A stretch of DNA of 64,000 nucleotides, from NCBI GenBank assembly GCA_050246115.1, contig JBFWWP010000032.1, forward strand, positions 1,078 to 65,077, written 5' to 3'. Shown here piece by piece: positions 24,735 to 52,166 of this stretch. The DNA is from Planctomycetota bacterium. Its GTDB lineage: Bacteria; Planctomycetota; UBA8108; UBA1146; JAJFFE01. Below the pieces are notes generated by a model. That model did no database searches. It saw only the letters and a program-made list of their open reading frames with translations, and was not told the DNA's origin. The position numbers and the translations under genes are program-made. The first letter of the stretch is position 1; each line of letters starts with the position of its first letter.

Positions 24735-24762
24735 TGGAGTTCCGTTCACGCTGGGCAAAGAG

Positions 24763-25221: not shown

Positions 25222-27448
25222 GAGCGACCTCCTGGAGCAAGCTGGGATCGAAGGCGGAAACGATCGAGTCGAGGTCGACGAACTGCGTGACGCGGTCATG
25301 GACGACGGCGGTTTGAGTGACGCCCTTGCGCGGGATCTTGCGTTGAACCTCGATCGTCTCATCGACGATGTCGAGGATGCGCCCGACGACCAGGCCAACG
25401 CTGGACGAGCCACGCGAATGAACGATGACCTGATAGACCTGCCGTTCGCTCTCCTCCGTGGTTACATTGAAGAGCCGTGGCAGGTTGAGGAGTGGCATGA
25501 TCTCGCCGCGGTACTGAACGACTTCTTGACCGCCGACGAGTTCGACGCGGTCGAACGGGATCTCTTCGAGCCGGGCAACCGCAGCCAAAGGCATGGCCAT
25601 CTGTTCTTTGCCGCCGAGGCTGAACAGGAGCAGGGCTTGGCGGCGCCCGACGCTCTTGCTGTCGGCATGCTCGAAGCGGCCGACCTGGCGCTCCGCGTGT
25701 TCGGTGACCACCTGGGCGCGCTGAGCCAAGCCCATGACGTCCAGGATCAGCGCTACCTTGCCGTCGCCACGGACGGTGGCTCCGGCGAAAGCACTGGCAC
25801 CCTTGAGTTGCCGACCGAGCGGTTTGACGACGATCTCCTCAGTGTCGTTGATCCCTTCGACGACGAGGCCGAACTGACGGTCGTCGGCCTGGAGGACGAC
25901 GATGTTGACGATCGAGTCGGTGCGCGGCGTGTCGGCAGCCTTGGCGATTCGCAGTTCCTCGTCCAGGAAGACGAGTGGGAGGATGTTCCCGCGGAGTCGG
26001 TAGACCGGGGCGCGGTGGACATACTCGATGCCGTCGCGGGCTTGGTCCCCCTCCAGGCGGACCAGTTCGAGGAGGTTGACCTGGGGGATCGCGTACTGCT
26101 CGCCGCCGGTCGAAACCACCAGCGCGGGGATGATGGCCAGGGTCAGCGGGATCTTCACCCGCAGCGTCATACCTTGGCCGAACACGCTTTGCACGTCGAC
26201 CGTGCCGCCGATCTTCTCGATGTTGGTGCGGACCACGTCCATGCCGACGCCGCGGCCGGAGACGTTGGTCACCTTTTCTGCGGTCGAGAAACCTGGACGG
26301 AAGATGAGGTTCACCGCCTCACGATCGCTCATGCGTGCGTGCTGCTCGGCGGTGATGACGCTACGCTGCAGGGCCTTCTCCTTGACCCTTTCGATGTTGA
26401 TGCCAGCGCCGTCGTCGATGATCTCGATATTGACCTGGCCGCCCTCGTGGAACGCTCGTAGGAGGAGGCAGCCTTCTTCGGGCTTTCCTTTCTGACGGCG
26501 GACTTCGGGGGGTTCGATACCATGGTCGACCGAGTTGCGAATGACGTGTGTGAGCGGGTCCTTGATGGCCTCGATGATGGTCTTGTCGAGCTCGGTGCCC
26601 TCACCCTCCATCTCCACACGGACCTTCTTGCCACAGGCGCGCGACAGATCGCGGACCACGCGTGGGAACCGACTCCACACGGTGTGGATGGGCTGCATGC
26701 GGGTTTTCATGACACCGCCTTGCAGTTCTGTCGTCACGAGGTTGAGTCGCTGAGTGGTCGCGAGGAAGGTGTTGTCGTTGAGGTTGGCGGAGAACTGGAG
26801 AATCTGGTTCCTGGCCAGCACGAGTTCGCCAACCAGGTTCATGAGCTTGTCGAGTTGGGCGACGTCGACCCGGACGGCGGTGTCGGCCAACGAGGCGGCC
26901 TTGGACTCGTTGGGACGGCTCGGCTCGGGCGCCGGTTCGCCGGGCGGCGACGAAGCAGGCGCTGCCCCCGCTTCGGCCGGACGAACTCGTTCGGCCTTCT
27001 CGACCATGGGCGGAACGGGCTCAGGTGGAGCCGCGGGGACCGCTTCGGCCACGGCCGGATCGGCTTGGCGGCTTGGGTCCTGCAGGCGCGTGAGCAGTGC
27101 GATCAGTCCGGAGTCGTCGCGAACCCCCTCGTTCCCGGAGTTCTCGATGGAGGAGAGCATTTGGCGCACCGCGTCGACCATGGCGAGCAACGCGGTGGTG
27201 ATCTCCTGGTTCAGTTGCAGCTTGCCGTCGCGCAGCATGCTGAGGAGGTTCTCCCCGTTGTGCGTGACGGACTCGAGCTTGTGGAAGGCGAGGAACCCGC
27301 AGGTACCCTTGATCGTGTGGATACAGCGGAAGATCGCCGCCAGGAGATTGCGGTCGGTTGGGTCCTTCTCGAGCGCGATCAGGTCACGGTCCAACTGGTC
27401 GAGGCCCTCGTAGCTCTCCACCAGAAACTCTCGGATTAGGTCGTCCAT
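25214..27448 (-). CDS. cheA: Chemotaxis histidine kinase CheA
   Basis: HPt site FRCIHTIKGTCGFLAF. Dimerisation and HATPase_c regions (HLIRNSVDHGIE, GRGVGMDVV). Two C-terminal CheW-like domains. Start at ATG 27448 (MDDLIREFLV). Confidence 0.9.
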   Translation of the reverse strand: MDDLIREFLVESYEGLDQLDRDLIALEKDPTDRNLLAAIFRCIHTIKGTCGFLAFHKLESVTHNGENLLSMLRDGKLQLNQEITTALLAMVDAVRQMLSSIENSGNEGVRDDSGLIALLTRLQDPSRQADPAVAEAVPAAPPEPVPPMVEKAERVRPAEAGAAPASSPPGEPAPEPSRPNESKAASLADTAVRVDVAQLDKLMNLVGELVLARNQILQFSANLNDNTFLATTQRLNLVTTELQGGVMKTRMQPIHTVWSRFPRVVRDLSRACGKKVRVEMEGEGTELDKTIIEAIKDPLTHVIRNSVDHGIEPPEVRRQKGKPEEGCLLLRAFHEGGQVNIEIIDDGAGINIERVKEKALQRSVITAEQHARMSDREAVNLIFRPGFSTAEKVTNVSGRGVGMDVVRTNIEKIGGTVDVQSVFGQGMTLRVKIPLTLAIIPALVVSTGGEQYAIPQVNLLELVRLEGDQARDGIEYVHRAPVYRLRGNILPLVFLDEELRIAKAADTPRTDSIVNIVVLQADDRQFGLVVEGINDTEEIVVKPLGRQLKGASAFAGATVRGDGKVALILDVMGLAQRAQVVTEHAERQVGRFEHADSKSVGRRQALLLFSLGGKEQMAMPLAAVARLEEIPFDRVELVGGQEVVQYRGEIMPLLNLPRLFNVTTEESERQVYQVIVHSRGSSSVGLVVGRILDIVDETIEVQRKIPRKGVTQTAVVHDRVTQFVDLDSIVSAFDPSLLQEVAHA

Positions 27449-27782
27449 GCACTTCCCTTGGAGTTGTTCGACGTGGCGATGGGGTACGCTAGGTCTCGGC
27501 CTGACAGCTTTATCGACAGAACTGCGCGGTTCCCTTAGCGACCGAGGCGTGGGTCCCGGAAGCGTGGCGAGGCCGGCCGTCGGGAGGGAGGAGCCCGGGG
27601 GCGCGCGACCGCAGCGCACCGGCGGGTTCGCCGCGCACGATGCAGGCTTGCCAGGGGGCTAGCGAGGAGCACCGTTGGCCAGTATCCTCGGAAGCCTTGC
27701 GAGCCGCTGGCGGGGAGGGCGGCGCGGCGACCCCGGTCTCGGGTCACTGTTTCGACGCCAACTCCCTTTCAGAAAACAGCTT

Positions 27783-32113: not shown

Positions 32114-33967
32114 TCACGGGCAGGCGGCGGCGCACCCCAGAGTGTCCGCCGTCGGATCCACTCCGCAAGTTCCAACGGGCGGGCGTAAGGGGATGGGGGG
32201 TTGTCCGAACAGCGACCCGAGTAGGATCACGGCGTCCGCGAGGTTCAGCCCTCCGTCATCATTCGCGTCACAAGCGTCGCTGCAGGTGACCGCGTTTGGA
32301 GTGCCGGTAGGAAAGAGGAAGCCCAACAGGAACACCGCATCGGAGATGTTCTCTGCGCCGTCGACATTACAGTCTCCGCGCACGAGCGTCGCCGTTGCCG
32401 AACACTCATCCGGGGTTCCGTCGCCGTCGGTGTCCGTACTCGTTCCACTCGCGATGTCGCATGGGTCCGGAGTGCCATTGCTGTTGCAATCGGCGAAGGC
32501 GGGCGCGGTGAACAGAAGCCACAAACTCCCGAACCCGGTGGTCGGGAAGTCGCCGACGGCCCCGACCGCGATCTCGCGGTGTCCGTCTCCATCGATGTCG
32601 GCGAGCGCCTGGAGCGAGCGACCGAACGAGCTCGTGTCGATCAGTGCACCATCGAAGTCGCCGGCGGTGTCGCTGATCTTCTGCCCACCGAGCACCGTGC
32701 CGCCAGGTTGCAGCGTGAGCACCCACACCGCACCGCGGTTTGCGAAGTTGCCCACGCCGCCATCGTCGTCCAACGGGGCGCCGACCAACAAGTCGGGGAT
32801 GTCGTCGCCATTCAGGTCACCGGGCGCCCCGACCGCGGAGCCGAAGGCATCACCACCGCTCAGTCCCGCAGGGAGATTGCCGGCGAGCGCGCTGATCTTC
32901 TGCGTTCCGGAAACCGATCCGAGCGGGCTCAGAAACAAGATCCAAACGGCGCCCGTGTCGTTTGCGCCGTCGTCGTCGAGGCGCGCGCCGACCGCGATGT
33001 CGCCCACGAGGTCCCCATCGACATCGCCCACCGCTGCCACCGAGCTGCCGAAACCGTCGAGGTCGTCCAACACTCCCGCGAACGCCCCGGAGGTTGCGCT
33101 GATCTTGTGCTCCGCCACGACGCTCCCGGTGTTCGTCAAATCGAGGAGCCAGACCGCGCCGCGGTCCATGCCGCCATCGTCCGTTCCGCGGGCACCGACC
33201 GCGAGGTCCGGGACGCCGTTCCCATCACGGTCGCCCAACGCTGCCAGCGACTCGCCAAAGAAGTCGAATGCGGCGAGCGTGCCCATGAATGAGCCCTGCG
33301 TCGCGCTGACCTTGGCGAAGCCGCTCACCGCGGGGCCGGGAGCGAGAAACAAAATGTACACGGCACCCGCATCGCTGGCGCCATCGTCATCACCAGTAGC
33401 TCCTACCGCCAGGTCCACTGTGCCGTTCTGGTCGACATCGCCTACTGCAGCGACGGCGGACCCGAAGCGGTCGCTCGCGTCGAGTGGGCCCGTGAATCCG
33501 CCTTGGCCCTCCGCGATCTTCGTGTGGCTGGAGACCGTGCCATCGGCCGCGAGGAGCAAGATGTAGACGGCGCCTTGGTCCGATCCGCCATCGTCATCGC
33601 CGGGTGCGCCCACCGCAATGTCGGGGATCCCATCGCCATTGAGGTCGCCCACCGAGGCGATGGCTTGGCCGAAGCGGTCGAAGGGGTCGAGGTCCACGCC
33701 GAACCCGCCGGTAAGGTCACCGATCTCCGTCTCCCCCGTGAGCGCCCCTGCCCACGCGCCGAGGTCGCACTCGTCAGGAATGCCGTTGACGTTGCAGTCG
33801 GCACTGGTGCCGCTGCTCAAGTCCAGCGCGTCGTCGATGCCGTTGCCATTGCAGTCAGCACCCCGAAGTGCAGTTGGCTCGCTCAGCGTACCCGCGAGCA
33901 GCAGGGTCACTCCCGCCAGCCAGCCCTGCCAGCGCGTGAGCGCGGTGAAACGGAACAACGAAGCCAT
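32114..33967 (-). CDS. Secreted FG-GAP/VCBS-repeat (integrin-alpha-like beta-propeller) protein with C-terminal dockerin-like module
   Basis: Signal MASLFRFTALTRWQGWLAGVTLLLAGTLS. At least 7 repeats of the DxNGDGxxDLAVGAxGDDDGG type. C-terminus LVRGDCNVDGAENISDAVFLLGFLF ... CDANDDGGLNLADAVILLGSLF ... CGVDPTADTLGCAAACP. Confidence 0.7.
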   Translation of the reverse strand: MASLFRFTALTRWQGWLAGVTLLLAGTLSEPTALRGADCNGNGIDDALDLSSGTSADCNVNGIPDECDLGAWAGALTGETEIGDLTGGFGVDLDPFDRFGQAIASVGDLNGDGIPDIAVGAPGDDDGGSDQGAVYILLLAADGTVSSHTKIAEGQGGFTGPLDASDRFGSAVAAVGDVDQNGTVDLAVGATGDDDGASDAGAVYILFLAPGPAVSGFAKVSATQGSFMGTLAAFDFFGESLAALGDRDGNGVPDLAVGARGTDDGGMDRGAVWLLDLTNTGSVVAEHKISATSGAFAGVLDDLDGFGSSVAAVGDVDGDLVGDIAVGARLDDDGANDTGAVWILFLSPLGSVSGTQKISALAGNLPAGLSGGDAFGSAVGAPGDLNGDDIPDLLVGAPLDDDGGVGNFANRGAVWVLTLQPGGTVLGGQKISDTAGDFDGALIDTSSFGRSLQALADIDGDGHREIAVGAVGDFPTTGFGSLWLLFTAPAFADCNSNGTPDPCDIASGTSTDTDGDGTPDECSATATLVRGDCNVDGAENISDAVFLLGFLFPTGTPNAVTCSDACDANDDGGLNLADAVILLGSLFGQPPIPLRPPVGTCGVDPTADTLGCAAACP

Positions 33968-34172
33968 CGAGGCACCTCCTGGTTCGGCGTGGAGTCGCTG
34001 CGGCCTTGCGGGCAGGCTCTCGCGGCCGGGCCCGGTGAGCACCACGACCGGAGGCGTTGCTCGAGGTTCCGGCGGCTCGCTGCTGCGATCGAGAGTACTG
34101 ACTGCGCGCCAGACGCGCGAGCGCGGATGGCCGCGTTTCGCGTATCCAGCCGTGCGCCACGGACGGGTCCGC

Positions 34173-37100
34173 TCAGAAGCGGGATCGTGGCAGCGGCTCG
34201 AGTAGGTCCTGGTAGCGGGCGCGCTCCGATGGCGTGAAGTCGCGGAAGAGACGACCGCGGACGGCGTCGAGCAGAGTCTCCGGACTGGCCCACCACAAGC
34301 GCGCCGTGCGGTCGAACGACGACGTCGCGACGCGGGTCCCGTCGGCGGAGAACTCGGCCGACCATACGACTCCGGAGTGGCCGTTCAACGTGAGCACGAG
34401 GGTGCCGTCCAGGCTCCAAATGCGCGCGGTCTGATCTCGCGACGCCGTGAGTACGCGTTGCCCGTCGGGCGAGAAGACCGCGCTGAGGACCGCTCCTTCA
34501 TGACCGCGAAGGACGGCGAGGCACGCGCCGTCGGCCACGCGCCAAACACGCGCGGTGCCGTCGTCGGAGCCGCTCACCAGGGTACTGCCGCTTGGGTCGA
34601 ACCGTACGCTATGAGGCAGCCCCGTGTGACCGTCGAGCTGGGTGATCAGGGCGCCCTGCGGGGTCCAAACGCGAATGCTCTTCGCGCTCGTCGTCGCCAA
34701 TCGCTGGCCGTCCGGCGCGAAGACCGCCGACCACACGAGGTCGTCGTGCCCCGTGAGTCGAGCGAGGACTCGTGCGTCGGCGTCGAGCACCAATGCGGAG
34801 CGATCGTTGCCGCGGGCGACGAAGCGCCATGCGGTCCCACCGAACCAGCCGCAGAGGACTCTCTTCTCGGGACTCGCGATCGTCCAGTGGAGGGTGCCAT
34901 CGAGGCTCCACACGTAGGCGCTTGGACCACTGGTGGTGGTGAACACGCGCGCCCCAGTGGGCAAGAAGGAAGCCGAGTAGACGAGCTCATCGTGGGGCAG
35001 TACGAGCCGCTCCCGTCCGTCGCGACTCCACACTCGCGCCGTGCGGTCGCGCCCGCCGGTGACGACGAGGTCGCCGTCGCACGAGAACGCCGCTGAGTAC
35101 AAACCCAGAGAGTGACCGCGAAAGACAGGGAGTCCCGCCGGTTGCAGGTCCCAGAGGCGCACGGTGGTGTCGGTCGAGGCCGTGACCACCGTGGTCATGT
35201 CCGGCGCGACCAGCGCCGCGTTGACGCTGGCGTCGTGCCCTCGAAAGAAGCTGACCGGTGTGCCGTCGAGGCGCCAGAGACAGGCCGATTGGTCGGCGCT
35301 CGCGGTGACGACGTACTGATCGTCGGGCGTGATCGTTGCATGATGGACGGCTCCGCCGTGGCCGCGGAACACGGCGATCTCGCGTCCGGCACGGTCGAAG
35401 AGACGCGCGGTCTGATCCGACGAAGTGGCGAGGATCTCACCGCGCGGCGTGAAGGATACGCTCTGCACGCGATCGTCGAGGGCGAGTTGCGGCCCCAGGG
35501 ACTCACCGTCGGCACCGAATCGCAGCAACTCGCGGTTCCCGACGGCCACGAACTCCGGTTCGCCGAACGCGGTCGCGAGTCGTGGAGGCCCACTGAAGTT
35601 CGTCACGCGTTCCCATTGCTCCTTGCCGGTCTCGACTTCGAAGCAGCGGAGACTTCCGCCGGCGCCCGCAACGATGAGAAGTCGGTCGCGATCGATGAGC
35701 GCTGCGTCGTGGAGCCGACTCATGCCCATCGGAAACTGGGAGCGAACGGCTCCGGACGCCGCGTCCCGGATGGTGCAGCGCGCGCACTCGACCTCGAAGA
35801 GGGTCGCACCCAGCGTGTCGAAACGAAGTATCCGCGGTGAGCGCTCGGGATCTGAGTCGCCAGCCGCCACGTGGGCGTCGCCCACGAGGGTCGGGCTGGG
35901 TGTCTGGGCCAGATTCCAGGCGAAGGTGTTCCCAGCGCTCGTAGCGAACGCGAGGCGTCGGCCGCTCGGCGCGACGGCCACCGTCACGATCTCCTCGGTC
36001 GACGCGAAGCTCGCGATCCGGACGCCGCCCCAGGTCCACGCCTGCAGGGTATGGCGATCGACGCTGACGAAGCCGGTCGCGTCGCCCAATGCGTAGAGTT
36101 GCTCGACACTCTCCTCGTGGCCCGTGAGCACCTGGCGCTCGTGGAGCGCCGCCATCACTTGATGGAGTTGCGATAGCGTCCGTGGGGTGGGCTCGGTGTC
36201 GACGGCTTCGCGAGCGAGGAGTAGCGCCAGCAACGGATCTTGACCCGCGGCTTCGGCGGACGCGCTCACGAAGGTGACCGCGCGCGCATGCCTGAGGCTC
36301 CGATCGCGGTGGTCGATCGCTTGATTCAAGCCATGAACGTAAACCGCCGTGGTCGCGAGCAAAACGATGGTCGTTGCCGCCAGCGTGGCGGCGAGGATGG
36401 GGTTGCGCGCGATGGCCATCTGCAACAGCTCGCGCACGCTCGGCCGACGCGCCGCGATGGGGCGCGCCTCGAGAAAGGCGCGCAGATCGCTCGCCAACTC
36501 GGCCGCGGAGGCATAGCGTTGATCCGGCAGGGGCAGCGTGGCGCGGCGGATGATGACATCGAGATCTCGGGGTACGCGCGGCTCCAGGCGACGCACGCGC
36601 GGCACCATCCCACGAGCCCATGGGTGCGACCGGGCGTCGGGGTTCATGCCGACCAGCGGATGCTGCTGCGCCAAGAGTTCGAACAAAGTCACGCCCAAGC
36701 TGAAGATGTCGCTCCGCACTTCCGCCCGGCCTTGCAGGCACTCTGGCGCCAAGTAGCGGAGCGTGCCGACGAGGTCACCGGTACGGGTGAGATCGCTTCC
36801 TTCCTCGGTCTTGCACAGGCCGAAGTCGGTGACCCACGCATGGTCCTGGTCGTCGAGCAGGATGTTCGAGGGCTTGATGTCGCGGTGCACGACCCCGTGC
36901 GCGTGCGCATGGGCCAAGGCTTCCGCTACTTCGAGGCCGATCCGAGCCGCGCGCCGCAGATGCGCCTCCCATGCCTCCGCGGCGCTCAGTGCGCTCGCGT
37001 CCAGACCCTGGATCACGGCGTCGAGCCCCCGACCCTCGATGTATTGCATCGCATAGTAGTGCCGGCCGCGGTCCGTACCCACGTCGTACACGGGAACGAT

Positions 37101-37520
37101 GTGGGGGTGGTGGAGGCGTGCGGCGGCACGCGCTTCACGGTGGAAGCGCAGGGCGAGCCCTTTGGGATCGCCGCCCGGGAGTTCCAGAACCTTGAGGGCG
37201 ACGCGGCGACCCAGCGCAGGGTCCAGGGCTTCGAAGACGACGCCCATCCCGCCTCGCGCCAGTTCGCGAAGGACAGGGTAGCCGCCAAGTTCCGTGCTCG
37301 CGGTCAGCCGCTCTCCCGGAGGGGGCGGGAGTTCGACGAGTGCGGCGTGCAGGTCGAGAATCTCCTCCGCGAGATCCGGGTGTCGGGTGACGAACTCGCT
37401 CACCGGTGGAATCGATCCGTCGACGAAGCCTTGCGCGAGCGTGTCCGCGATGCGCCCCAAGGTTTCGTCTGGAGTCGCGGAGGGCGCGTGAGGTGGTGGG
37501 GAGGGGAGCACGTCGCTCAT
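34173..37520 (-). CDS. Serine/threonine protein kinase with C-terminal WD40 beta-propeller repeats (~14 repeats)
   Basis: GGMGVVFEA, ALKVL, HRDIKPSNILL, DFGLCK, LAPE. The C-terminal ~700 aa is made of WD-like repeats (GHxxxVxxxxFSPDG...WD). Start overlaps the upstream ECF sigma gene by ATGA. Confidence 0.85.
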   Translation of the reverse strand: MSDVLPSPPPHAPSATPDETLGRIADTLAQGFVDGSIPPVSEFVTRHPDLAEEILDLHAALVELPPPPGERLTASTELGGYPVLRELARGGMGVVFEALDPALGRRVALKVLELPGGDPKGLALRFHREARAAARLHHPHIVPVYDVGTDRGRHYYAMQYIEGRGLDAVIQGLDASALSAAEAWEAHLRRAARIGLEVAEALAHAHAHGVVHRDIKPSNILLDDQDHAWVTDFGLCKTEEGSDLTRTGDLVGTLRYLAPECLQGRAEVRSDIFSLGVTLFELLAQQHPLVGMNPDARSHPWARGMVPRVRRLEPRVPRDLDVIIRRATLPLPDQRYASAAELASDLRAFLEARPIAARRPSVRELLQMAIARNPILAATLAATTIVLLATTAVYVHGLNQAIDHRDRSLRHARAVTFVSASAEAAGQDPLLALLLAREAVDTEPTPRTLSQLHQVMAALHERQVLTGHEESVEQLYALGDATGFVSVDRHTLQAWTWGGVRIASFASTEEIVTVAVAPSGRRLAFATSAGNTFAWNLAQTPSPTLVGDAHVAAGDSDPERSPRILRFDTLGATLFEVECARCTIRDAASGAVRSQFPMGMSRLHDAALIDRDRLLIVAGAGGSLRCFEVETGKEQWERVTNFSGPPRLATAFGEPEFVAVGNRELLRFGADGESLGPQLALDDRVQSVSFTPRGEILATSSDQTARLFDRAGREIAVFRGHGGAVHHATITPDDQYVVTASADQSACLWRLDGTPVSFFRGHDASVNAALVAPDMTTVVTASTDTTVRLWDLQPAGLPVFRGHSLGLYSAAFSCDGDLVVTGGRDRTARVWSRDGRERLVLPHDELVYSASFLPTGARVFTTTSGPSAYVWSLDGTLHWTIASPEKRVLCGWFGGTAWRFVARGNDRSALVLDADARVLARLTGHDDLVWSAVFAPDGQRLATTSAKSIRVWTPQGALITQLDGHTGLPHSVRFDPSGSTLVSGSDDGTARVWRVADGACLAVLRGHEGAVLSAVFSPDGQRVLTASRDQTARIWSLDGTLVLTLNGHSGVVWSAEFSADGTRVATSSFDRTARLWWASPETLLDAVRGRLFRDFTPSERARYQDLLEPLPRSRF

Positions 37521-38146
37521 GCGGAGTTCATTCCGTGGTTTGGCTCGGCAAGGGTTCGCAGCGCGCGGCCAAGGCGCTGCAGTGCGCGCGCGTAGCGCAA
37601 GCTCGCGGCGGGCTCCGACAACTCGAGCCGCTGCGCCACTTCTTGATTGGTCAGACCTTCGAAGTGCCGGAGCCCCAGCACTTCCCGATCCGAGTCGCCG
37701 AGACGGGCGAGTGCGGTCCGTAAACGAAGCGCGTGTTCCCGTTGTGCCAGGAGCACCGACGGAGAGTCGCCGCTGGCGGCCAGAGTCCCGACGGTCGCCT
37801 CGGAGTCACCCTCCCGGGCCCGACCCGCGAGTCGGGCCTCGCGCCGGACGTCGCGCTTGCGCCGGCCGAGGTGATGCCGGTGCACCTCCGCGATCTTCTG
37901 AAGGGCGAGGTAACGAACCCAAACCGAGAGCGAGACGCTGGGCTCTTGGGCTTCATAGCTCGGCAGGCGGGTCACGGCCTCGACGAAGATGTCCTGCACC
38001 ACGTCGGACGGGTCGACGCGTCCGCGGAGGCGTCGGTCGAGTCGGACAGCGACCATGCGCCGGATCCACGCGCGATGGGTTTCGAGGCGTTCGTACGCGT
38101 CGAGTCGTGCAGGTACGTTGGGCGTCGGCGCGGATTCGGCGCGCAT
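37517..38146 (-). CDS. ECF-type RNA polymerase sigma-70 factor, translationally coupled to the downstream Ser/Thr kinase
   Basis: Region 2 DVVQDIFVEAVTRLPSYE...VWVRYLALQKI. Region 4 DREVLGLRHFEGLTNQEVAQRLELSEPAASLRYARALQRL. Confidence 0.8.
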   Translation of the reverse strand: MRAESAPTPNVPARLDAYERLETHRAWIRRMVAVRLDRRLRGRVDPSDVVQDIFVEAVTRLPSYEAQEPSVSLSVWVRYLALQKIAEVHRHHLGRRKRDVRREARLAGRAREGDSEATVGTLAASGDSPSVLLAQREHALRLRTALARLGDSDREVLGLRHFEGLTNQEVAQRLELSEPAASLRYARALQRLGRALRTLAEPNHGMNSA

Positions 38147-38401: not shown

Positions 38402-39283
38402 ATGGACTACTCGATCCGGGCGACATTCCGGCTCGTCTTCGTGTCTGCGACTCTCTGCGGTGCGCTCGGCGCGCAGTCGATCAACGTGAACTTCGGAACG
38501 ACAGCGTTGCCCGTCGACTACGCCGGGGTCGGCCTGCCGGGCTTTTGGAACGTGACGAGCGGTGCGCAGGGGCCGGTCCATCCCTTGATGAGCCTGGCGG
38601 GACAGCCGACGTCCGTGAACTTCACGAACATCGGCGGCACCGCCCTCCTGACGCAAGCGAGCCCCGCCCCGGGTGTGGACGGAGACCTCATGACGCAGTA
38701 CCTCGTCACCCACAATCCCAACCTCGAGGTGTGCATCTTCTTTCACAACTTGCAGCCTGGCACCTATCTCGTGATTGCGTACACCTGGCTTCCCAATGCC
38801 AGCAGTCTGGTGAGTGTCGATCAGGCAGTGGGTCCGGACGAACTGGTAGGGGGCCCATGGCCCGGGGGGCTTGCCGAGGGACGAACTCACTCCGTGCGAG
38901 TGGCCCAGGTCACCAACGGCAACCTGGGGCTGCACTCGGGGGTGCCGCCGGGAGCCAGTCCGGTGGTGGCGGCACTCAACGGCGTGCAACTCGTGCTACT
39001 GCCCGTGTCGAACCCCTTCGTTCGGGGCGACGTCAATGGCGATGGGTCGCGCGACATCGGCGACGCCGTGGGTACGCTGCAGCACCTCTTCGGTGGGGTA
39101 CCGAGTTCGTGTCTGGATGCGCTCGACTTCAACGATGACGGCGCCGTGGACATCGGCGACGCCGTGGCGTTGCTCGCGAACTTGTTCCAAGGACAGCCGG
39201 GACCGACGCTCCCGAGTGTTGCCTGCGGACCCGACCCGTCGTTGGACCCGATCGGTTGCACGAGCACCGCGGCGTGCCCCTGA
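38402..39283 (+). CDS. Secreted protein with C-terminal dockerin-like module
   Basis: Signal MDYSIRATFRLVFVSATLCGALGAQS. C-terminus FVRGDVNGDGSRDIGDAVGTLQHLF ... LDFNDDGAVDIGDAVALLANLF ... CGPDPSLDPIGCTSTAACP. Confidence 0.6.
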   Translation: MDYSIRATFRLVFVSATLCGALGAQSINVNFGTTALPVDYAGVGLPGFWNVTSGAQGPVHPLMSLAGQPTSVNFTNIGGTALLTQASPAPGVDGDLMTQYLVTHNPNLEVCIFFHNLQPGTYLVIAYTWLPNASSLVSVDQAVGPDELVGGPWPGGLAEGRTHSVRVAQVTNGNLGLHSGVPPGASPVVAALNGVQLVLLPVSNPFVRGDVNGDGSRDIGDAVGTLQHLFGGVPSSCLDALDFNDDGAVDIGDAVALLANLFQGQPGPTLPSVACGPDPSLDPIGCTSTAACP

Positions 39284-39373
39284 TGGGACCTGTTCGCGGT
39301 CGAGTCCCGGCGCTGCTTGCGGCTCCGGGTCCCTGCCGAGCGTCCCGACGAGACACGCGCTGTGATCGATTCG

Positions 39374-42106
39374 TCAGCGGATCTCGAGCGAACGCGCAGC
39401 GATCGAGGCGGTGAGATCGTGCTCCATCAGCAGATAGGGCAGAACCTCGACGAGCCGACCGGAGAACGGAACGAGCGTCGCTTCATCGAGGCGCGAAGAG
39501 GCCGTGAGCGTCGGGGTCAGAGTCAGCTCGACCCGGCACTGGGTCGAGAGCCAGCCAAGAAACTGGCGTAGCGTCAGCCGGGACTCGACGGTGACGAACA
39601 GGTCGTTCGAGAAGCACGAGCTCAGGTCCAGTGGGTGATCGTCCGGAGCCAGAGCGCGGAGGCGAACCTCGACGGGCTGGCCATCCCTTGCAGCCGATAC
39701 GTTGCGCATCGTCGCGACATCGTGGTCTGGTGCCGCAACGGTGAGGTCGTAACGACCGGGCGGCAAGGTCAGCGCCAGAGAGTCTGCGGCTTGGTGGGTC
39801 GAGAGTGCGGGAGCGCCGAGTTCTGCGATGGTGGCTTGGGCAAAAGCTGCGGATATCGGCAAGCCGTCGTTCGATCGAAGTCGCAAGACGAGGTTCACGC
39901 GGGAACTCGGGACGTCGGCGATGGTGACGCTTCCGGCACCCTGGCCGTCGGCAATCTCGACCGGTTGTACGGCACACAGGACCACTTGGTCCCACTCTCC
40001 GGTCCGGTAGAGCAGTGCGAGATAGGAGCCTGCCGGAACATTTCTGGCGACGAACTCGCCGGCGACGTCGCAGCGCGATGTCACTTGCGGTTGCTCGCCC
40101 CGCCAGGATCGGGTGAGGCTGACCCAGCGAACCTGGTACTCGTCCGGATTCACACCCGGAGCCGGCAGCACTCGTCCACTCACCGTGTTTCCCAGCGGCA
40201 GGGGCAGGGTGAGCGCTGTCTCGCTGCCCGGCGTCACGACGACCGAACGACGAATCAGCGAGAACGGGCCGCGCCCGGCCTCGATCTCGTACGACGCTGG
40301 CGCCAGGTTGGCGAAGACCGTAGCACCTTCCAGCGAAGTCAGCCCGTGGCCGACAATGCGGGTTCCGGTGATGACCGTGACCTCGATCTCGGGCAATGGC
40401 TCGCCTGAGTTGGTATCGAGGACTGCGACGCTGACGGATCCGCCGCGGTTCAGCTCGAGGCGCAAGTGCTCGTCGCCGGCATTGGCTTCCATCTGGCCTG
40501 TTGTCCAACCTGGCGCCTTGGCGGCGACCAGCACTCGCCCTGCGGGCACTCCGTCGAGCCGAAAGCACCCGGCCGGATCGGCGGTGGTGGCGCGATCACC
40601 CTCGGCTAGCGCACTTGGCCCGTTGTGAGCGACGATGGTCACGACGGCTCCGGGAATCGGGTAGCCGTCTCCGAACACGCAGCCGCCGAGGAGCAACGCG
40701 GAAACCAAGGCAAGGTCGATCGACTCGGTTGCCTGTGCAGGAAGCTCGAACGAGATCGACCGGCGCGGCGCATAGCCGAGGGCCGAGGCTTGCACTTGGT
40801 GCCGTGGGCCGTTGCCTTCGAGGAGGAGCATTGATCCGCCCAGTGTGACGAGCGCGTCGCCGTCACGTTCAGCCTGCATCCCCGCTTCGCTCTCCGGCGA
40901 TGGGCTGGTCGTAGACCCATCGGCAGGAGTTCCAGGGTTCGAGCTTGCGGGCGGAACCGCAAGTTCCGGCCGTGCAAAGAACGCATAGAACCCGTCCGTG
41001 TCGGAAACCGTCGCGGCGACGCGAACGAGCGAGGTCGAGGCCTCGGGGTTCTCGCCGTCGGCGTCCGCGGGTTGCTCGCCGAGGAGTTCCACGACGGCGC
41101 CAGCGATCGGATGACCGACGGGATCCACGACGCGGCCGGCGACACTTGGGACCTGCGCCACTTCGGATGCCGCCGGCGTGCTCGGGGCGAACCGCGACTC
41201 GGACGCAGTCTGGGCTCCCGTGGAGGCGACGGTGTCTGGCAGTGGGCGTGGCATCCCGCTCGCGTTGGCGGTCTCGGCGGTGACGTCACTCGCGCCGTTG
41301 GCCAGCGACGGTGGCTTCGGGTCGTTCGCAGCCGTGTCACCCGAGGAGGAGTAGACGGTCAGGATTACGCCGGGGCCGAGCACGACGCAGAGGAGCAGCA
41401 CTGCCCACTGACGCGCGCCGATCCCCGCACTCAGGCTCGCGTTCGACGTGGGCGCGAGAAGCGGGGCTTCGAACGCAGCATCGACTGCGGCATGGAGTCT
41501 GGCGGCGAGCGCGGTCGGCTCGGGGATGCGAGCGGGTCGCGCCAGCCAGTGCTCCAACTCGCAGAGGGATGTGGGCGCTAGACCGAGTGCGGCGGCCGGC
41601 CCCAGGAGTTCGCGCAGCCGTTCCTTGGCAGTCGCAATGCGCCGGGCAACGGTGCCTTCCGGGCAGCCCAGCGTGACGGCGATCTCGCGATACTTGAGGC
41701 CTTCGTGATAGTGAAGGACCAGCGGCATGCGAAGGGTGTCCGGCAGTTCGGCGAGCGCAGTGACCAGGGCTCGATTCGTCATCTCGACCTCCGCATCCGA
41801 TTCCGGGTTGGCGCGCGTGTCGGGCTCGACCGGCGCCAAGGCCTCCCGACGACGCCGACGTGTATCGTCGCGTCGCGCGCTGCGGGCAGCGTTCAACGTG
41901 ACCCGCACCAGCCACGGTGTGAGCGTCTGAATCGGCGGCGAATCGGTGCGGCTGCGGACGAGGCGGAGGAACACTTCCTGCGCCACATCTTCGGCGTCTT
42001 CCGCGTTTCCCAGCGCGCGATACGCCACCCGGTAAACGAGTCCACGGTGGCTCTCGACCGCCGCGTGGACGAACTGGCGAAACGACTCCGTGCTGGCGTG
42101 GGACAT
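39374..42106 (-). CDS. ECF sigma factor fused to a transmembrane helix and a large extracytoplasmic domain with carboxypeptidase-regulatory-like beta-sandwich repeats (single-polypeptide sigma/anti-sigma-like protein)
   Basis: N-terminal sigma regions 2 and 4 (DVAQEVFLRLV...; LVLHYHEGLKYREIAVTLGCPEGTVARRIATAKERL). Hydrophobic helix QWAVLLLCVVLGPGVILTV at about aa 225-245. Then a ~650-aa periplasmic region with GRVVDPVGHPIAGAVVEL-type repeats. Confidence 0.7.
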   Translation of the reverse strand: MSHASTESFRQFVHAAVESHRGLVYRVAYRALGNAEDAEDVAQEVFLRLVRSRTDSPPIQTLTPWLVRVTLNAARSARRDDTRRRRREALAPVEPDTRANPESDAEVEMTNRALVTALAELPDTLRMPLVLHYHEGLKYREIAVTLGCPEGTVARRIATAKERLRELLGPAAALGLAPTSLCELEHWLARPARIPEPTALAARLHAAVDAAFEAPLLAPTSNASLSAGIGARQWAVLLLCVVLGPGVILTVYSSSGDTAANDPKPPSLANGASDVTAETANASGMPRPLPDTVASTGAQTASESRFAPSTPAASEVAQVPSVAGRVVDPVGHPIAGAVVELLGEQPADADGENPEASTSLVRVAATVSDTDGFYAFFARPELAVPPASSNPGTPADGSTTSPSPESEAGMQAERDGDALVTLGGSMLLLEGNGPRHQVQASALGYAPRRSISFELPAQATESIDLALVSALLLGGCVFGDGYPIPGAVVTIVAHNGPSALAEGDRATTADPAGCFRLDGVPAGRVLVAAKAPGWTTGQMEANAGDEHLRLELNRGGSVSVAVLDTNSGEPLPEIEVTVITGTRIVGHGLTSLEGATVFANLAPASYEIEAGRGPFSLIRRSVVVTPGSETALTLPLPLGNTVSGRVLPAPGVNPDEYQVRWVSLTRSWRGEQPQVTSRCDVAGEFVARNVPAGSYLALLYRTGEWDQVVLCAVQPVEIADGQGAGSVTIADVPSSRVNLVLRLRSNDGLPISAAFAQATIAELGAPALSTHQAADSLALTLPPGRYDLTVAAPDHDVATMRNVSAARDGQPVEVRLRALAPDDHPLDLSSCFSNDLFVTVESRLTLRQFLGWLSTQCRVELTLTPTLTASSRLDEATLVPFSGRLVEVLPYLLMEHDLTASIAARSLEIR

Positions 42107-42232
42107 GCCGAATTCCGTTCTGGACCAGGCGCTCGAGCGCGAGCCGAGCGATCGTCGGGCGGGCTGCTACCGGGGATCGGGCACGCGGCAGTTTCGACCC
42201 TCCATCGACCCTGCCGCGTGCAGTGGCAGTAG

Positions 42233-42805
42233 CTACTGCTCGCTGCCACCTTCGATGATCTCACCGACTCCCGTGGTCTCGCCACCGGCATACGCCGGTA
42301 CCTTGCCGGTGTCGACCATCGCCTGAGCCTCTTGGATCTCGCGCTGCGCTCGCACCAGGGCCATCAGCACGAGAGTGTTGACCTCCGCCGCCGGCTTCCC
42401 CTTCTCGAGCTTGCTCAGAGCGACCCCGAGTTGTTTCACTTGGGCTTTGAAGTCGGCCAAGGTGAGAGGATACAGCCCGGCTTCGCCCAAAGCGCCGAGA
42501 ACGGCGTCGATTCGCAGCTGCACCTTCTCGTTCTCGTGACGCCGCATCTGGGTGAGGGCATGGATGACTTCGACGCGATCGACGCCCCGCGCGCGCTCGA
42601 GCAGCTTGCCCTTGGCCTCCGTCCAGTTGTCGTCCTTCAGTTGGAAGACCAGTGGATAGACGCCGTCTTCCTCGACGAGCACGAGCGCGGTCCCGTCCTG
42701 TCCCCCTTCGATGATGATTTGCCCTTGGGTAGGCCCGGCTCCCACCATCAGCACCCAGCCCAGCGCGAACGAGACCAGAACCGACCAAGCAAACACGCGT
42801 ACCAT
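42233..42805 (-). CDS. Hypothetical secreted protein
   Basis: AAAGGAG SD then ATG at 42805. Signal MVRVFAWSVLVSFALGWVLMVGAG. Helical, Lys/Glu-rich, no known domain. Confidence 0.5.
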   Translation of the reverse strand: MVRVFAWSVLVSFALGWVLMVGAGPTQGQIIIEGGQDGTALVLVEEDGVYPLVFQLKDDNWTEAKGKLLERARGVDRVEVIHALTQMRRHENEKVQLRIDAVLGALGEAGLYPLTLADFKAQVKQLGVALSKLEKGKPAAEVNTLVLMALVRAQREIQEAQAMVDTGKVPAYAGGETTGVGEIIEGGSEQ

Positions 42806-43102
42806 CGGAACTCCTTTCGTTGGGTCCACCCTGTAGACTCCGCGGACGGAGTTTTCTTCGCTCGGGATCGAGATCATGGGCGTTCTGGTCGAGGCCGTTC
42901 GCGGGGAGGCCGGGCCGAGGTCAACGGTGACTTGGGCGCGGAGGGGCAACCGGGCTCCCGGGGTGGGGGCGCGAGCGCGAGGCCGAATCTTCGGGCCGGC
43001 CTCCCGAGCCGGCCGATGTGTGGGGAATGGCAAGGCGTGGGACCGGCGGCAGCGACGCCGTAGTGACCGGCTTGGCGGAGGCCGCGTTACCGGTCGGCAG
43101 CC

Positions 43103-45557: not shown

Positions 45558-45685
45558 GGGTGGGCAGGGCCGGTCGCGGACTCAACGCCCACCGGTTCAG
45601 AATCGACCGGCGACGTGCTAGAGTCAGCGGCGCCAGGCGCGCGCGTAGCGCCCCCTCGATCACCCCCATCGGAAGGAAACACGAG

Positions 45686-46384
45686 ATGAAGGTGACCCCA
45701 ACCACTCGAGCGCTGGCCCTGATCGCTCTCCTCCTCGTCGCGACGCCCGCCTCCGGCTTCATTCGGGGCGACGTGGACGGGGGAGGAAGCGTGGATATCG
45801 GCGACGCGGTCGTTCTGCTCAACTCGTTGTTCGCACCCCAACCGCCGCAGGTCGCGTGCGCGGACTCCGCGGACACGAACGATGACGGAGCGGTGAATCT
45901 CGCTGACGCCATCTACTTGTTGGCGGCGCTGTTTCAGCCTTCCGCTCCGCCCATTCCTCCCCCGTACCCGAGCGATGGTATCGACCCGACTGCGGACCCA
46001 CTGCCACCCTGCGGTCCGCTGGGACTGCTGACCGTCGCAACGTTGTCCCAGGGTCCGGTCTCCGGGGACAGCACGCCGACGCAAGAGATCATCGTCGACG
46101 CGGTCGCCTGGAGTGCTTTCTGGGCGCAGCACTCGTCCGATCCGCAACCGTTCGTCGACTTCAGCACCGAGATGGTCGTCGCCATTCGCGAGGCGTTCGA
46201 TAACGCCGGCGTCACCATCAACATCGACGAGATCGAGGCGCTTGGAGCGACGCTCGAGATTCGCTATACGCTCACGCTTCCCGGTGTGCCACTTTCCCAG
46301 GCGGAGCAACCGCATCACTTCGTGCGTTGCCCGAAGGTGATTGCGCCGCCGGTCTGGGTGGCGACCGTCATCGCCTTGCCGTAG
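45686..46384 (+). CDS. Secreted protein with the dockerin-like module at the N-terminus, directly after the signal peptide
   Basis: GGAAGGAAAC SD-like then ATG 45686. Signal MKVTPTTRALALIALLLVATPASG. FIRGDVDGGGSVDIGDAVVLLNSLF ... CADSADTNDDGAVNLADAIYLLAALF ... PSDGIDPTADPLPPCGP. Confidence 0.6.
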   Translation: MKVTPTTRALALIALLLVATPASGFIRGDVDGGGSVDIGDAVVLLNSLFAPQPPQVACADSADTNDDGAVNLADAIYLLAALFQPSAPPIPPPYPSDGIDPTADPLPPCGPLGLLTVATLSQGPVSGDSTPTQEIIVDAVAWSAFWAQHSSDPQPFVDFSTEMVVAIREAFDNAGVTINIDEIEALGATLEIRYTLTLPGVPLSQAEQPHHFVRCPKVIAPPVWVATVIALP

Positions 46385-50213: not shown

Positions 50214-52166
50214 ATGTCACCCGAGTATCGATACCTACGATCTGACGCGCTCCCCGACCGCGTATCCCTCGAGGCTTGTGTGGAAACATGCGCCGAGCGG
50301 GCATGGCGGCTCGCCTACGCGCTGTTGCGCAGCCACGACGACGCGTTCGACGTGGTGCAGCAGGCGTGTCTCGTTGCCGCCCTCAAGCCCGGGCAGATCC
50401 CGCGTCCACCCGCCGATCCCTGGCCCTGGTTCAGTGTGGTCATTGCGAACGAGGCTCGCAACTCCCGGCGCAAGGCTCGGAGAAGTCCACTGTCGCTCGC
50501 GAGCGGTGAGAAAGGAGAGTCCATGGATGTCGTCGACCATCGCGGGGTGGATCCAACGGACGCACTCGCCGTCGAGGACTCGCACCGCGCGCTGTGGCGA
50601 GAGATCGATGCGCTCCCTGAGCCGGAGCGCACGGCGTTGGTGCTCACCCGTATCGGCGGCCTCAGCCATGAAGCCGTTGCCCGCTCGGTCGGAGTGCCGC
50701 GTCAAACGCTGACGTCTCAGATCGCGCGCGCGATGGAGCGTCTGCGCGCTCGACTGCGGCGGGAGGATCCCGCGATTCTTGCGCAAATGGCGCTCTTGCC
50801 GGTGGCGCTCCCCGACCGCGGTTGGTCCGCGGCGATCGCCGCCTGGAAGACCACGGCTTCGGCTGGTCTGGCTGCGAAAGCGGCCGCCGGCACCATGACC
50901 CTAGGAGGTATCATGACACTCAGCAAGCCAACGCTGGCAGCGGCGATTTCGGTGGCACTTGGCGTCGGCTTGACCACGGGCTACTTCGCGGGCGATCACC
51001 GGCCGACTGCGCTGCGGGGAGTCGAGGAACGAGCCCAAAGTGAGCACGCAGCGATCGCGACGCTCGCAGACGCACCTGCGGCCCTACGACCGGTGATCGA
51101 CGCAGCCATCGCGGAGGCCTGCGCGACGACCTCCGCCCGTGTCCGCGAGTCGTTCGACTCCGAGCTTGCGGCCCTTCGCGCCCAGCACGAATCCGTGGTC
51201 GCCGAGCGCGACGCGCTCCGCGGCCAACTGGCTGAACTCGAAACCCCGAGTGACCCCGCAGGCCCGACCTTCACCTTCGGCGAAGGCGGACAGCTCCCGG
51301 AGGTGGCGCAGGCGAACTGGGCGGAGATGGCAGAGGCCTCCCACATCGTCGCTGGCGCGATCAAGGACATGGTCGCCTACCAAGATCGCGGCGAACCGGT
51401 CCCGACGAGCGTCGGCATTGCGATGCAGGAGAACGTCGAGAAGATGCGCAAGTACGAGTATCGCGTCTTCCAGAAGCTCCCATCCGAGGCCCGGTTCAAC
51501 GGCGAGTTCACGCACCCGATCTCGGTCACCAACCTGCTCGCAGCCGAGCTGACGCGTTCCGGGCTGCCGCTCACCGCCCCGCAGGTCGAGGCCATCAGCC
51601 GAGTCGGGGAGCAGTACGAGCAAGACGCCGCGCGCTACCGCGACAACTACCCGCCCGACACGCTTCGAGTGCGCAGGATCCTCGACGAGTACCTGCTCAA
51701 GAGCGACTTCACCGAGGCGGTCTACGAGGTGCTCACTCGTGAGCAACGACAGATCATCATCGATCCGGCGACGAACCGCATCGCGTTCCTCGATCTCTAC
51801 TGCCCCTCGCTGATGATCATCCACACGTCGCCGATCCTCCAGGGTGCGACGCCCGAGGAGTTGAAGACCAAGCTGGGGCAACTCGTGAGCGCTCGCTACT
51901 CGTTGGCCGACGCCGAAGGGGTCTGGCTCGAAGGGCTACTCCAAAACTGGCGCGCCCGCGTAGCCCCGATCCTGCACGAGGTTCCACCCCATCGCGTCCG
52001 CTACTACACTTTCGAAGAGAGCGTGATCGCCGGACACGCCACAGTGGAGCTACTGACCGAGCTACTCGGCCACGCGACCGACGACGCCGCGCGCGCCACG
52101 ATCCTGGATGAGGCTGGCTTCCTCATCCCGCGACTCGTCGCGGCGCCGACCGTCAGTCAAGGCTGA
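50214..52166 (+). CDS. ECF sigma factor fused to a transmembrane segment and a ~400-aa extracytoplasmic domain (second sigma/anti-sigma-like single polypeptide)
   Basis: Region 2 DDAFDVVQQACLVAAL...PWFSVVIANEARN. Region 4 ERTALVLTRIGGLSHEAVARSVGVPRQTLTSQIARAMERL. Hydrophobic segment LGGIMTLSKPTLAAAISVALGVGLTTGYF. Long helical C-terminal domain with no recognised family. Confidence 0.7.
   Translation: MSPEYRYLRSDALPDRVSLEACVETCAERAWRLAYALLRSHDDAFDVVQQACLVAALKPGQIPRPPADPWPWFSVVIANEARNSRRKARRSPLSLASGEKGESMDVVDHRGVDPTDALAVEDSHRALWREIDALPEPERTALVLTRIGGLSHEAVARSVGVPRQTLTSQIARAMERLRARLRREDPAILAQMALLPVALPDRGWSAAIAAWKTTASAGLAAKAAAGTMTLGGIMTLSKPTLAAAISVALGVGLTTGYFAGDHRPTALRGVEERAQSEHAAIATLADAPAALRPVIDAAIAEACATTSARVRESFDSELAALRAQHESVVAERDALRGQLAELETPSDPAGPTFTFGEGGQLPEVAQANWAEMAEASHIVAGAIKDMVAYQDRGEPVPTSVGIAMQENVEKMRKYEYRVFQKLPSEARFNGEFTHPISVTNLLAAELTRSGLPLTAPQVEAISRVGEQYEQDAARYRDNYPPDTLRVRRILDEYLLKSDFTEAVYEVLTREQRQIIIDPATNRIAFLDLYCPSLMIIHTSPILQGATPEELKTKLGQLVSARYSLADAEGVWLEGLLQNWRARVAPILHEVPPHRVRYYTFEESVIAGHATVELLTELLGHATDDAARATILDEAGFLIPRLVAAPTVSQG

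Follow-up and report, generated by a model that had tools for sequence, protein, structure and literature searches.

Results

The Locus and the Sigma Fusion Gene

The window analysed here is a stretch of 64 kb from a Planctomycetota bacterium (contig JBFWWP010000032.1; positions are counted from the first nucleotide of the stretch). On its minus strand lies a gene for an extracytoplasmic function (ECF) sigma factor that continues, within the same polypeptide, through one membrane helix and into a long region of beta-sandwich domains. This sigma-transmembrane-beta-sandwich architecture is real and conserved across a family of proteins. By analogy to the sigma/anti-sigma hybrid IutY, the best-supported reading is that the membrane would retain the sigma domain until it is cleaved or a signal arrives. 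The gene, referred to below as the sigma fusion, and the parts of its product are as follows (aa, amino acids; TM, transmembrane; AF2, AlphaFold2):

39374..42106, minus strand: ECF sigma fusion gene, a single open reading frame (ORF) of 910 aa with an ATG start
41858..42058, minus strand: Sigma-70 region 2, aa 17-83 (Pfam PF04542, E 8.4e-15, 54.8 bits against a cut-off of 24)
41609..41773, minus strand: Sigma-70 region 4 helix-turn-helix, aa 112-166 (PF08281, E 1.8e-13; PF04545, E 5.5e-9)
41468..41566, minus strand: cytoplasmic segment with helices aa 181-189 and 200-213 and the motif P-x-x-L-x-x-R-L, candidate minimal anti-sigma element
41348..41410, minus strand: single TM helix, aa 233-253 (Kyte-Doolittle 2.29; helix 230-253 in the AF2 model)
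41150..41347, minus strand: disordered Pro/Ser/Thr/Ala-rich linker, aa 254-319, candidate site-1 protease target
39659..41149, minus strand: about five beta-sandwich domains (CarboxypepD_reg/transthyretin-like), aa 320-816 (PF13620 and AF2)
39377..39625, minus strand: C-terminal alpha/beta domain, aa 828-910, with a predicted secretin-N0/STN fold (TonB-dependent-transducer signalling domain)

A first-pass annotation, made from the nucleotide sequence and its ORFs, had described the gene as encoding a single-polypeptide fusion. The ORF is uninterrupted, its codon-position GC content is uniform and its homologues are full-length, all of which bear this description out. Third-position GC content was between 0.64 and 0.82, in one frame throughout, in every 50-codon block of the ORF. 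By the same measure no frame switch was found near aa 200-250, where a frameshift or sequencing error had been suggested to create an artificial fusion of two genes, or in the junction at aa 150-330. The identical 910-aa protein is present at NCBI in two records from two contigs (MGE3166606.1/MGE3965000.1), both labelled 'MAG: sigma-70 family RNA polymerase sigma factor [Planctomycetota bacterium]' (MAG, metagenome-assembled genome). A frameshift or chimera was ruled out by the uniform codon-position GC content and the full-length homologues. The C-terminal STN/N0-like domain, the promoter-like motif upstream of the gene and a co-encoded small secreted protein were missed in the first-pass annotation.

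From the Sigma Domain to the Membrane

Sigma-70 regions 2 and 4, which had been placed at the N-terminus, were both found there, with Pfam matches exceeding their cut-offs within aa 17-166. The Sigma70_r4_2 (PF08281) match at aa 112-164 scored 50.4 bits against a cut-off of 25.7, and sigma regions 1 and 3 had no Pfam match in the protein. The NCBIfam model TIGR02937 (sigma70-ECF) scored 99 bits against a cut-off of 42.9. The window protein is an ECF (group 4) sigma-70 factor. Its best NCBIfam matches were of the SigE, SigW, and SigM type, with FecI absent among the 25 listed, and the specific subfamily and equivalog models all scored far under their cut-offs (e.g., SigE, 88.8 against 265). The AF2 model places the helices of sigma-2 at aa 3-89 and those of sigma-4 at aa 105-167. 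In an alignment of six sequences, the window protein and five relatives, the sigma-2 motifs DAEDV.Q..F and W..R were invariant, and the region-4 stretch LHY.EGLKYREIA....CPEGTVA.RI was nearly so.

The gap between sigma-4 and the membrane helix was found to be 46-80 residues across 26 members of the family, with about 55-65 for the window protein. Class I anti-sigma domains consist of four helices in 101 ± 33 residues, and segments of <50 residues are excluded (PMC7406223). No such domain was found in the gap, which contains two predicted helices and, with 46-80 residues compared to about 100, is too short to hold one. The zinc motif HxxxCxxC was not found in aa 168-232, where the one Cys (C182) is not conserved in the family. 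The protein had no Pfam match to zf-HC2 or RskA, and a search of the segment preceding the membrane helix against Pfam at E ≤ 10 returned nothing relevant.

The second of the two helices (aa 200-213) opens with the motif P-x(1-3)-hydrophobic-x-x-[RK]-hydrophobic, which was found in 21 of the 26 members, 30-52 residues before the membrane helix; P197 and R203 were invariant in the six-sequence alignment. The helix is amphipathic, since hydrophobic residues recur at every fourth position (L200, L204, V208, and F212), and its predicted local distance difference test (pLDDT) score reached about 85, compared to about 40 for the membrane helix. Binding to sigma-4 and sigma-2 is documented both for anti-sigma elements of the two-helix type (class II) and for the fourth helix of class I domains (PMC7406223). 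In Foldseek searches the modelled sigma part matched known ECF sigma factors; it fitted best those crystallised with an anti-sigma factor (SigW-RsiW, TM-score 0.71-0.73; RpoE-NepR, 0.69) and fitted those bound to RNA polymerase poorly (0.32-0.41). This superposition agrees with a closed, self-inhibited state of the model, in which the candidate two-helix junction may have an inhibitory role.

The Membrane Helix and the Predicted Periplasmic Part

The hydrophobic helix quoted in the first-pass annotation, QWAVLLLCVVLGPGVILTV, corresponds to aa 233-251 and is indeed the sole strongly hydrophobic 19-mer of the protein, with a Kyte-Doolittle value of 2.29 compared to 1.65 for the next best. An equivalent segment, the most hydrophobic one at aa ~150-270 and directly after the sigma domain, was present in all 26 members examined, so the reservation that no TM helix might be predicted falls away. 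The region beyond the helix, aa 254-910, comprises about 657 aa and matches CarboxypepD_reg as had been described.

The linker that follows the helix has P, S, T or A in 39 of its 66 residues (aa 254-319). It is poorly conserved and variable in length within the family, and pLDDT was <50 across aa 215-319. Beyond it, PF13620 matched in three stretches with 102 bits against a cut-off of 32.3, and the AF2 model showed blocks of strands at aa 321-377 together with 435-470, and at 471-552, 556-636, 640-730, and 737-816. The first beta-sandwich carries a disordered insertion (aa 378-432). When compared to the PDB with Foldseek, the array resembled the tandem Ig-like stalks of Gram-positive pilins, the Bacillus TIE protein, and the B domains of SdrD (E 6e-13 to 1e-6). 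The full-length model was built on the six-sequence alignment; it shows well-predicted domains with disordered stretches between them and supports the domain boundaries more than the arrangement of the domains relative to each other. Judged from typical domain sizes, five Ig-like domains and a 65-residue linker would reach roughly 20 nm or more. The periplasm of Planctomycetota is unusually wide, and a reach of this order would suit it.

The protein ends in an alpha/beta domain, placed at aa 837-909 by the full-length model. Modelled alone, this domain had a pLDDT of 84 and a predicted TM-score (pTM) of 0.72, with the order beta-alpha-beta-alpha-beta-alpha-beta-beta. The leading Foldseek matches in the PDB, and most of the first 50, were of the N0/STN fold, with probabilities up to 1.0 and TMq ~0.6. 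They included the N0 domains of the secretins EscC, GspD, InvG, MxiD, PilQ, XcpQ, and LspD, the signalling domains of the transducers FpvA, PupA, and PupB, and the FecR-like anti-sigma 4m0n. Structurally related baseplate proteins of phages and injection systems, and a component of the Dot/Icm type IV secretion system, were found at lower ranks with similar TM-scores. With a profile of 21 sequences of the domain, the signalling domain of PupA was the second-best sequence match in the PDB and covered the whole domain at a sub-threshold E of 0.19, and the profile found nothing at E ≤ 0.001 among 5.8 billion proteins. The model makes a secretin-N0/STN fold likely. STN domains are N-terminal in thousands of proteins, and the FecR/PupR-type sigma regulators are the known exception; in these the STN domain, at the extreme C-terminus, helps to bind the signalling domain of the transducer (Jensen et al., PMC7186176).

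A Family Conserved From End to End

A search of the same 5.8 billion proteins gave five independent full-length relatives of 917-997 aa and 25-30% identity, all with the same order of sigma and CarboxypepD_reg parts. These relatives and the window protein align end to end, with invariant residues all the way between the sigma domain and the C-terminus. Among 1.84 billion cluster representatives, at least 25 proteins (clusters at 50% identity) match the family profile in a single alignment spanning approximately positions 1-915. Twenty further members were inspected. Each had a sigma domain, a single hydrophobic helix (aa ~150-270) and a beta-rich part, and most had the C-terminal domain as well. 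The fusion is genuine, because diverged full-length homologues share the order of the parts.

This bears on whether the fusion is accidental, arising from a frameshift, an assembly error or a recent chance insertion of a duplicated sigma cassette within some other gene, with an extension that has no regulatory role. Pinto and da Fonseca propose such an origin for many planctomycetal C-terminal extensions (PMC7671368), and insertion of a sigma cassette could have founded the present family. Against this, the coding signature is uniform across the junction, the identical protein was recovered from two contigs, the at least 25 diverged clusters keep the full architecture end to end, and the junction itself carries a conserved motif. 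We therefore give an accident hardly any credence and, because the architecture is conserved family-wide, take it to be excluded.

All members with a named organism are Planctomycetota MAGs. A scan of one genome per species likewise gave five loci with full or extended relatives, all of them labelled 'MAG: Planctomycetota bacterium'. The same searches also returned proteins with a sigma domain, membrane helix and CarboxypepD_reg part that belong to other sigma lineages and have no STN-like end, and in addition fusions of the sigma-WD40 and sigma-HlyD types. The last are distant matches of about 700 aa (P0009, P0011, P0012, and P0017), in which an ECF sigma factor is fused to HlyD/membrane-fusion-protein efflux domains.

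In one subclade of the family, exactly one CxxCH motif (the attachment motif for haem c) was found within an enlarged periplasmic insertion of the first beta-sandwich, at the following positions:

P0005/P0020: aa 342
P0030: aa 383
P0033: aa 389
P0035: aa 486
P0036: aa 518
P0052: aa 388

The motif was not found in the window protein and occurred in only two of the 140 other proteins fetched (296,000 residues). Its presence suggests that these relatives bind a haem covalently and hence sense redox state or gas.

A second extended sigma factor of 650 aa, with N-terminal Sigma70_r2 and r4 domains, is encoded at 50214-52166 on the plus strand of the window. It has a weak hydrophobic segment at aa ~241-259, which is followed by a helical extension of about 390 aa without a Pfam match. 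An extended sigma factor of 594 aa is also found near the family member in locus L004.

The Upstream Gene and the Promoter-Like Motif

Upstream of the sigma fusion we found three further features:

42181..42221, minus strand: GC-rich stem-loop (perfect stem of 11 bp), within the spacer of 126 nt that separates the small gene from the sigma gene
42233..42805, minus strand: orphan small gene, 190 aa, start Met77, with a signal-peptide-like N-terminus and a predicted secreted body
42835..42859, minus strand: ECF-type promoter-like motif GAAGAAAAC-N12-GTCT, about 30 nt upstream of the ATG of the small gene

The motif has two blocks, a -35 block GAAGAA(t/a)C and a -10 block GTCT, which are separated by a spacer of 13-15 nt; the promoter-like region upstream of the operon is represented as GAAGAAAACTCCGTCCGCGGAGTCT. 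Two-block promoters with an AAC-like -35 and a GTCT -10 are typical of ECF sigma factors, which usually autoregulate (PMC7826278). The pattern GAAGAA-N15-17-GTCT had one exact match on both strands of the 64-kb window, with 0.31 expected. Loci L001 (duplicated as L008), L005, L006, and L009 each had one exact match, on the same strand as the operon and upstream of it. In L001 and L006 it precedes the small gene, and in L005 and L009 it lies directly upstream of the sigma gene. The arrangement with a small secreted protein encoded between motif and sigma gene belongs to one subclade of the family. Exact motifs were thus found in five of the ten loci and nowhere else in them, and all five independent exact matches in about 192 kb (both strands) fall within a zone of about 150 nt upstream of the operon, no more than about 130 nt from its first gene. 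If two of these sites are discounted as having defined the motif, three matches are left. With about 3.6e-4 expected per zone, as estimated from the window background, chance is very unlikely. L002 and L004 carried versions with one mismatch at the same position. A near-match in the window, GACGAATC-N13-GTCTC at 39350-39375 on the minus strand, overlaps the sigma-gene stop codon and lies antisense to the dockerin gene at 38402-39283; it is probably due to chance. No sigma-70-type promoters or intrinsic terminators were found around the locus.

The small gene has the Shine-Dalgarno sequence AAGGAG 7 nt before its ATG at 42805, and its product is entered at NCBI as a 190-aa hypothetical protein (MGE3166607.1). 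In L001/L008, L003, and L006, the gene immediately preceding the sigma fusion encodes a homologue with 33-36% identity. L002, L005, L007, L009, and L010 were found to lack the small gene, and the upstream gene of L004 is not clearly homologous. The protein had no Pfam or PDB match, and the search of 5.8 billion proteins gave only copies linked to the family. From the arrangement of genes and motif, we take the small gene and the sigma gene to be a putative autoregulated operon, with the sigma fusion as the candidate reader of the GAAGAA...GTCT motif.

RNA folding placed a hairpin comparable to the spacer stem-loop 3' of the small-gene stop codon in L001 (7872-8000), L003 (1939-2080), and L006 (8671-8810). 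Folding of the spacer was significantly better than that of shuffled sequences only in L001 (z -4.05), one of four loci. The stem-loop could be a partial terminator that sets the ratio of the two products.

Neighbouring Genes and a Kinase

Apart from the small gene, no conserved neighbours were found in the related loci. In particular, no TonB-dependent receptor, secretin or protease was conserved near the sigma fusion in the nine related loci, and none was seen among the larger genes of the window in a Pfam scan. The remainder of the window carries chemotaxis genes, Ser/Thr kinases with partner ECF sigma factors, and secreted proteins with dockerin or FG-GAP repeats. Among the chemotaxis genes is one for a chemoreceptor with bacterial-type globin, PAS, and MCP domains (22554-24941, minus strand), which adjoins a cheA gene (25214-27619), and a kinase-TPR protein is encoded at 8623-11418. 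In four loci, secreted proteins of the dockerin or FG-GAP type were encoded no more than 10 kb from a family gene:

Window: 38402-39283 (plus strand), 45560-46384 (plus strand), and 32114-34045 (minus strand)
L003: 8-1246
L004: 5472-7001
L009: 1516-5375

This recurrence may be related to the regulon, or it may reflect how common such genes are in these genomes.

At 34173-38146 on the minus strand, an ECF sigma factor resembling the planctomycete-specific model TIGR02984 (162 bits, below the cut-off) overlaps by 4 nt with an ORF of 1115 aa. By eye, and by BLAST to a Pkinase-annotated gene of L001, the latter resembles a Ser/Thr kinase followed by WD40 repeats, which makes the two a typical kinase-linked ECF pair.

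The pair lies 1.2 kb from the sigma fusion, with a similar pair near the L001 homologue, and kinase-regulated ECF sigma factors are common in Planctomycetes (PMC7826278). The extension of the sigma fusion could accordingly be mainly a structural or adhesive stalk for localisation, with the sigma domain controlled in some other way, e.g., through phosphorylation by a nearby Ser/Thr kinase; its beta-sandwich array is also most like pilins, adhesins, and stalk proteins. Set against this, the kinase pairs vary between loci in orientation and kinase type and bring their own sigma factors. The sigma domain, the motif before the membrane helix, the helix itself and the STN-like domain are conserved together at 25-35% identity, and from this joint conservation we argue that they form one signalling unit. 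A role restricted to that of a stalk is thus quite improbable.

Discussion

How the Sigma Domain May Be Released

We lean, by a little, towards the sigma fusion being a self-regulating sensor that links the envelope to transcription in one polypeptide, with the sigma domain freed by regulated proteolysis. This proposal is modelled on IutY, the only fused sigma/anti-sigma protein with demonstrated proteolytic release, in which trimming by Prc leaves about 50 residues of the periplasmic part before RseP makes its cut, and in which truncation results in constitutive activity (PMC5411451, PMC8999054). In the resting state the sigma domain of the window protein would be inactive and tethered to the membrane, with the two helices that precede the membrane helix folded back on sigma-2 and sigma-4, much like the helix pair of a class II anti-sigma domain or the fourth helix of a class I domain. 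The STN-like tip, kept far from the inner membrane by the stalk, would contact a periplasmic or outer-membrane partner, possibly including the small protein. Loss or alteration of this contact would expose the periplasmic part to site-1 trimming, after which a site-2 (RseP-type) protease would cut within the membrane helix and leave the sigma domain free. The freed sigma domain would then bind RNA polymerase and transcribe its own operon from GAAGAA...GTCT, giving positive feedback, together with a further regulon.

The sigma domain might instead act while tethered, as the membrane-bound one-component regulators ToxR and CadC do, if a periplasmic signal reshaped the cytoplasmic segment and RNA polymerase were recruited to DNA nearby without cleavage. 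A tether of 46-80 residues could in principle reach the core polymerase; the locus has no linked protease gene, and no cleavage motif was identified in the sigma fusion. Yet IutY needs cleavage by Prc and RseP for its activity and is activated by truncation (PMC5411451), and a disordered, poorly conserved linker next to the membrane is typical of a region accessible to proteases. No membrane-tethered active sigma factor is described in two reviews of the field (PMC8999054, PMC8103513). We consider tethered action improbable. Both this explanation and that of a structural stalk have less support than a release mechanism.

Several observations count against proteolytic release as we have outlined it. 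Proteolysis, topology, and promoter use are all inferred. The positive-inside rule was uninformative as to topology, with 42 K+R inside and 40 outside over 26 members. The full-length AF2 model is of low confidence (mean pLDDT 66.1, pTM 0.34), AF2 often draws free ECF sigma factors in compact form, and the docking of the two cytoplasmic helices on the sigma domain is hypothetical. The C-terminal domain has no Pfam sequence match, even at E ≤ 10, and the STN assignment is likely rather than proven because the Foldseek E-values were only 0.016-0.4. The Pfam scan of the larger window genes gave neither a TonB-dependent transducer nor a secretin nor any other partner with an STN domain, and the small gene is present in only four of the ten loci. 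Finally, the promoter-like motif was recognised by eye, in upstream regions that also served to score it, and it is absent or at best degenerate in L003, L007, and L010.

A more far-reaching proposal is that the one polypeptide spans the periplasm and couples an outer-membrane or envelope event directly to RNA polymerase, independently of the FecI/FecR lineage. Its STN-like tip would attach to a partner in the outer membrane or periplasm, much as FecR docks on its transducer; the Ig-like stalk of about 20 nm and the linker would serve as reach or ruler, and a broken contact would free the sigma domain. Receptor contact, transducer, and sigma factor, i.e., a complete cell-surface signalling pathway, would then reside in one protein. 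In addition, a sister subclade may have a haem attached covalently at CxxCH, with which redox state or gas could be sensed. We regard this proposal as rather unlikely.

Fused sigma/anti-sigma proteins are a recognised, barely studied route from the cell envelope to transcription, and only IutY has been dissected experimentally. The window family provides a second, evolutionarily separate example, in which the cytoplasmic inhibitory element is presumably simpler, the periplasmic stalk is modular, and the tip of the stalk is predicted to share the fold used by FecR-type regulators for contact with outer-membrane transducers. If the proposed release holds, the logic of STN contact and regulated proteolysis has been assembled more than once, and the sigma domain, tether, and promoter motif would make a compact set of parts for synthetic switches from envelope to gene. 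Planctomycetota encode dozens of ECF sigma factors per genome, and the family adds a concrete case to the question of how these are controlled. A practical limit is that the known members all come from MAGs of uncultured organisms.

Relation to Known Sigma Factor Systems

Fused ECF sigma factors are an established class, as the first-pass annotation had rightly cautioned, and it is already published that ECF sigma factors of Planctomycetes can have long C-terminal extensions of varied kinds (PMC7671368, PMC7826278). The clusters of Pinto and da Fonseca (2020) and ECF57 share both the phylum and such extensions with the window protein. ECF57 has WD40-like repeats and two conserved Cys that link sigma-2 and sigma-4 (PMC8999054), neither of which was found in the window protein; membership in an ECF57/WD40-type group was rejected since there was no WD40 or beta-propeller match in Pfam and the repeat array of the modelled extension is of beta-sandwich type. 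The extensions of Pinto and da Fonseca are described as mutually unrelated (PMC7671368), whereas the window family is conserved along its whole length.

In the actinobacterial groups ECF48, ECF52, and ECF53 (e.g., SCO4117), the sigma factor is fused to a zinc-finger anti-sigma domain, and the proteins also have TM helices and, outside the cytoplasm, a part that is Pro-rich and binds carbohydrate (PMC8999054, PMC5826349). They resemble the window protein in having a C-terminal extension that crosses the membrane and continues as a Pro-rich linker and an extracytoplasmic beta-rich domain, and their activation is predicted to be proteolytic (PMC8999054, PMC5826349), as proposed here. They differ from it in phylum and in their extracytoplasmic domains, and the window protein lacks HxxxCxxC, on which ground membership in this zinc-binding anti-sigma (ZAS) type was rejected.

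The class II anti-sigma factors CnrY and NepR use a short two-helix element instead of a four-helix domain, placing one helix on sigma-4 and one on sigma-2 (PMC7406223). The two predicted helices of the window protein may be a comparable element, and the modelled sigma part superposes well on RpoE-NepR, with a TM-score of 0.69. CnrY and NepR are, however, separate proteins; no sequence similarity to them was found, and for the window protein a contact of the helices with sigma is a proposal.

FecR and PupR cross the membrane once, with the N-terminus in the cytoplasm and the C-terminus in the periplasm, where the chain ends in an STN-fold domain; the same arrangement is predicted for the window protein. 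They are separate anti-sigma proteins, whereas the window protein has its sigma factor covalently attached and lacks both a class I anti-sigma domain and a juxta-membrane FecR/CJM domain. The STN similarity of the window protein to them is at the level of the fold only.

IutY of Pseudomonas putida (ECF243), which serves a cell-surface signalling system, likewise unites in one polypeptide an ECF sigma domain at the N-terminus, a membrane helix and a periplasmic part of the anti-sigma type. This part belongs to the FecR-type regulators, which end in an STN-fold domain (PMC7186176), as predicted for the window protein. IutY and the window protein differ in phylum, and the periplasmic part of the window protein is three times longer and made of CarboxypepD_reg beta-sandwiches. 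No FecR domain (PF04773) was found in a Pfam search of the whole protein at E ≤ 0.1, FecI was not among its 25 listed NCBIfam matches, and no TonB-dependent transducer gene is adjacent to the sigma fusion. On these three grounds, membership in the FecI/FecR-type hybrids was rejected.

In the ECF literature covered we found no described group with this extracellular architecture; the classification supplements and the primary planctomycetal surveys lie outside that coverage and may name one. Within the same coverage, a family that combines a two-helix junction, a beta-sandwich stalk, an STN-like end, a linked orphan secreted protein, and a shared promoter-like motif appears to be undescribed. 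Its closest functional analogue is IutY, and its closest periplasmic logic is that of FecR and PupR.

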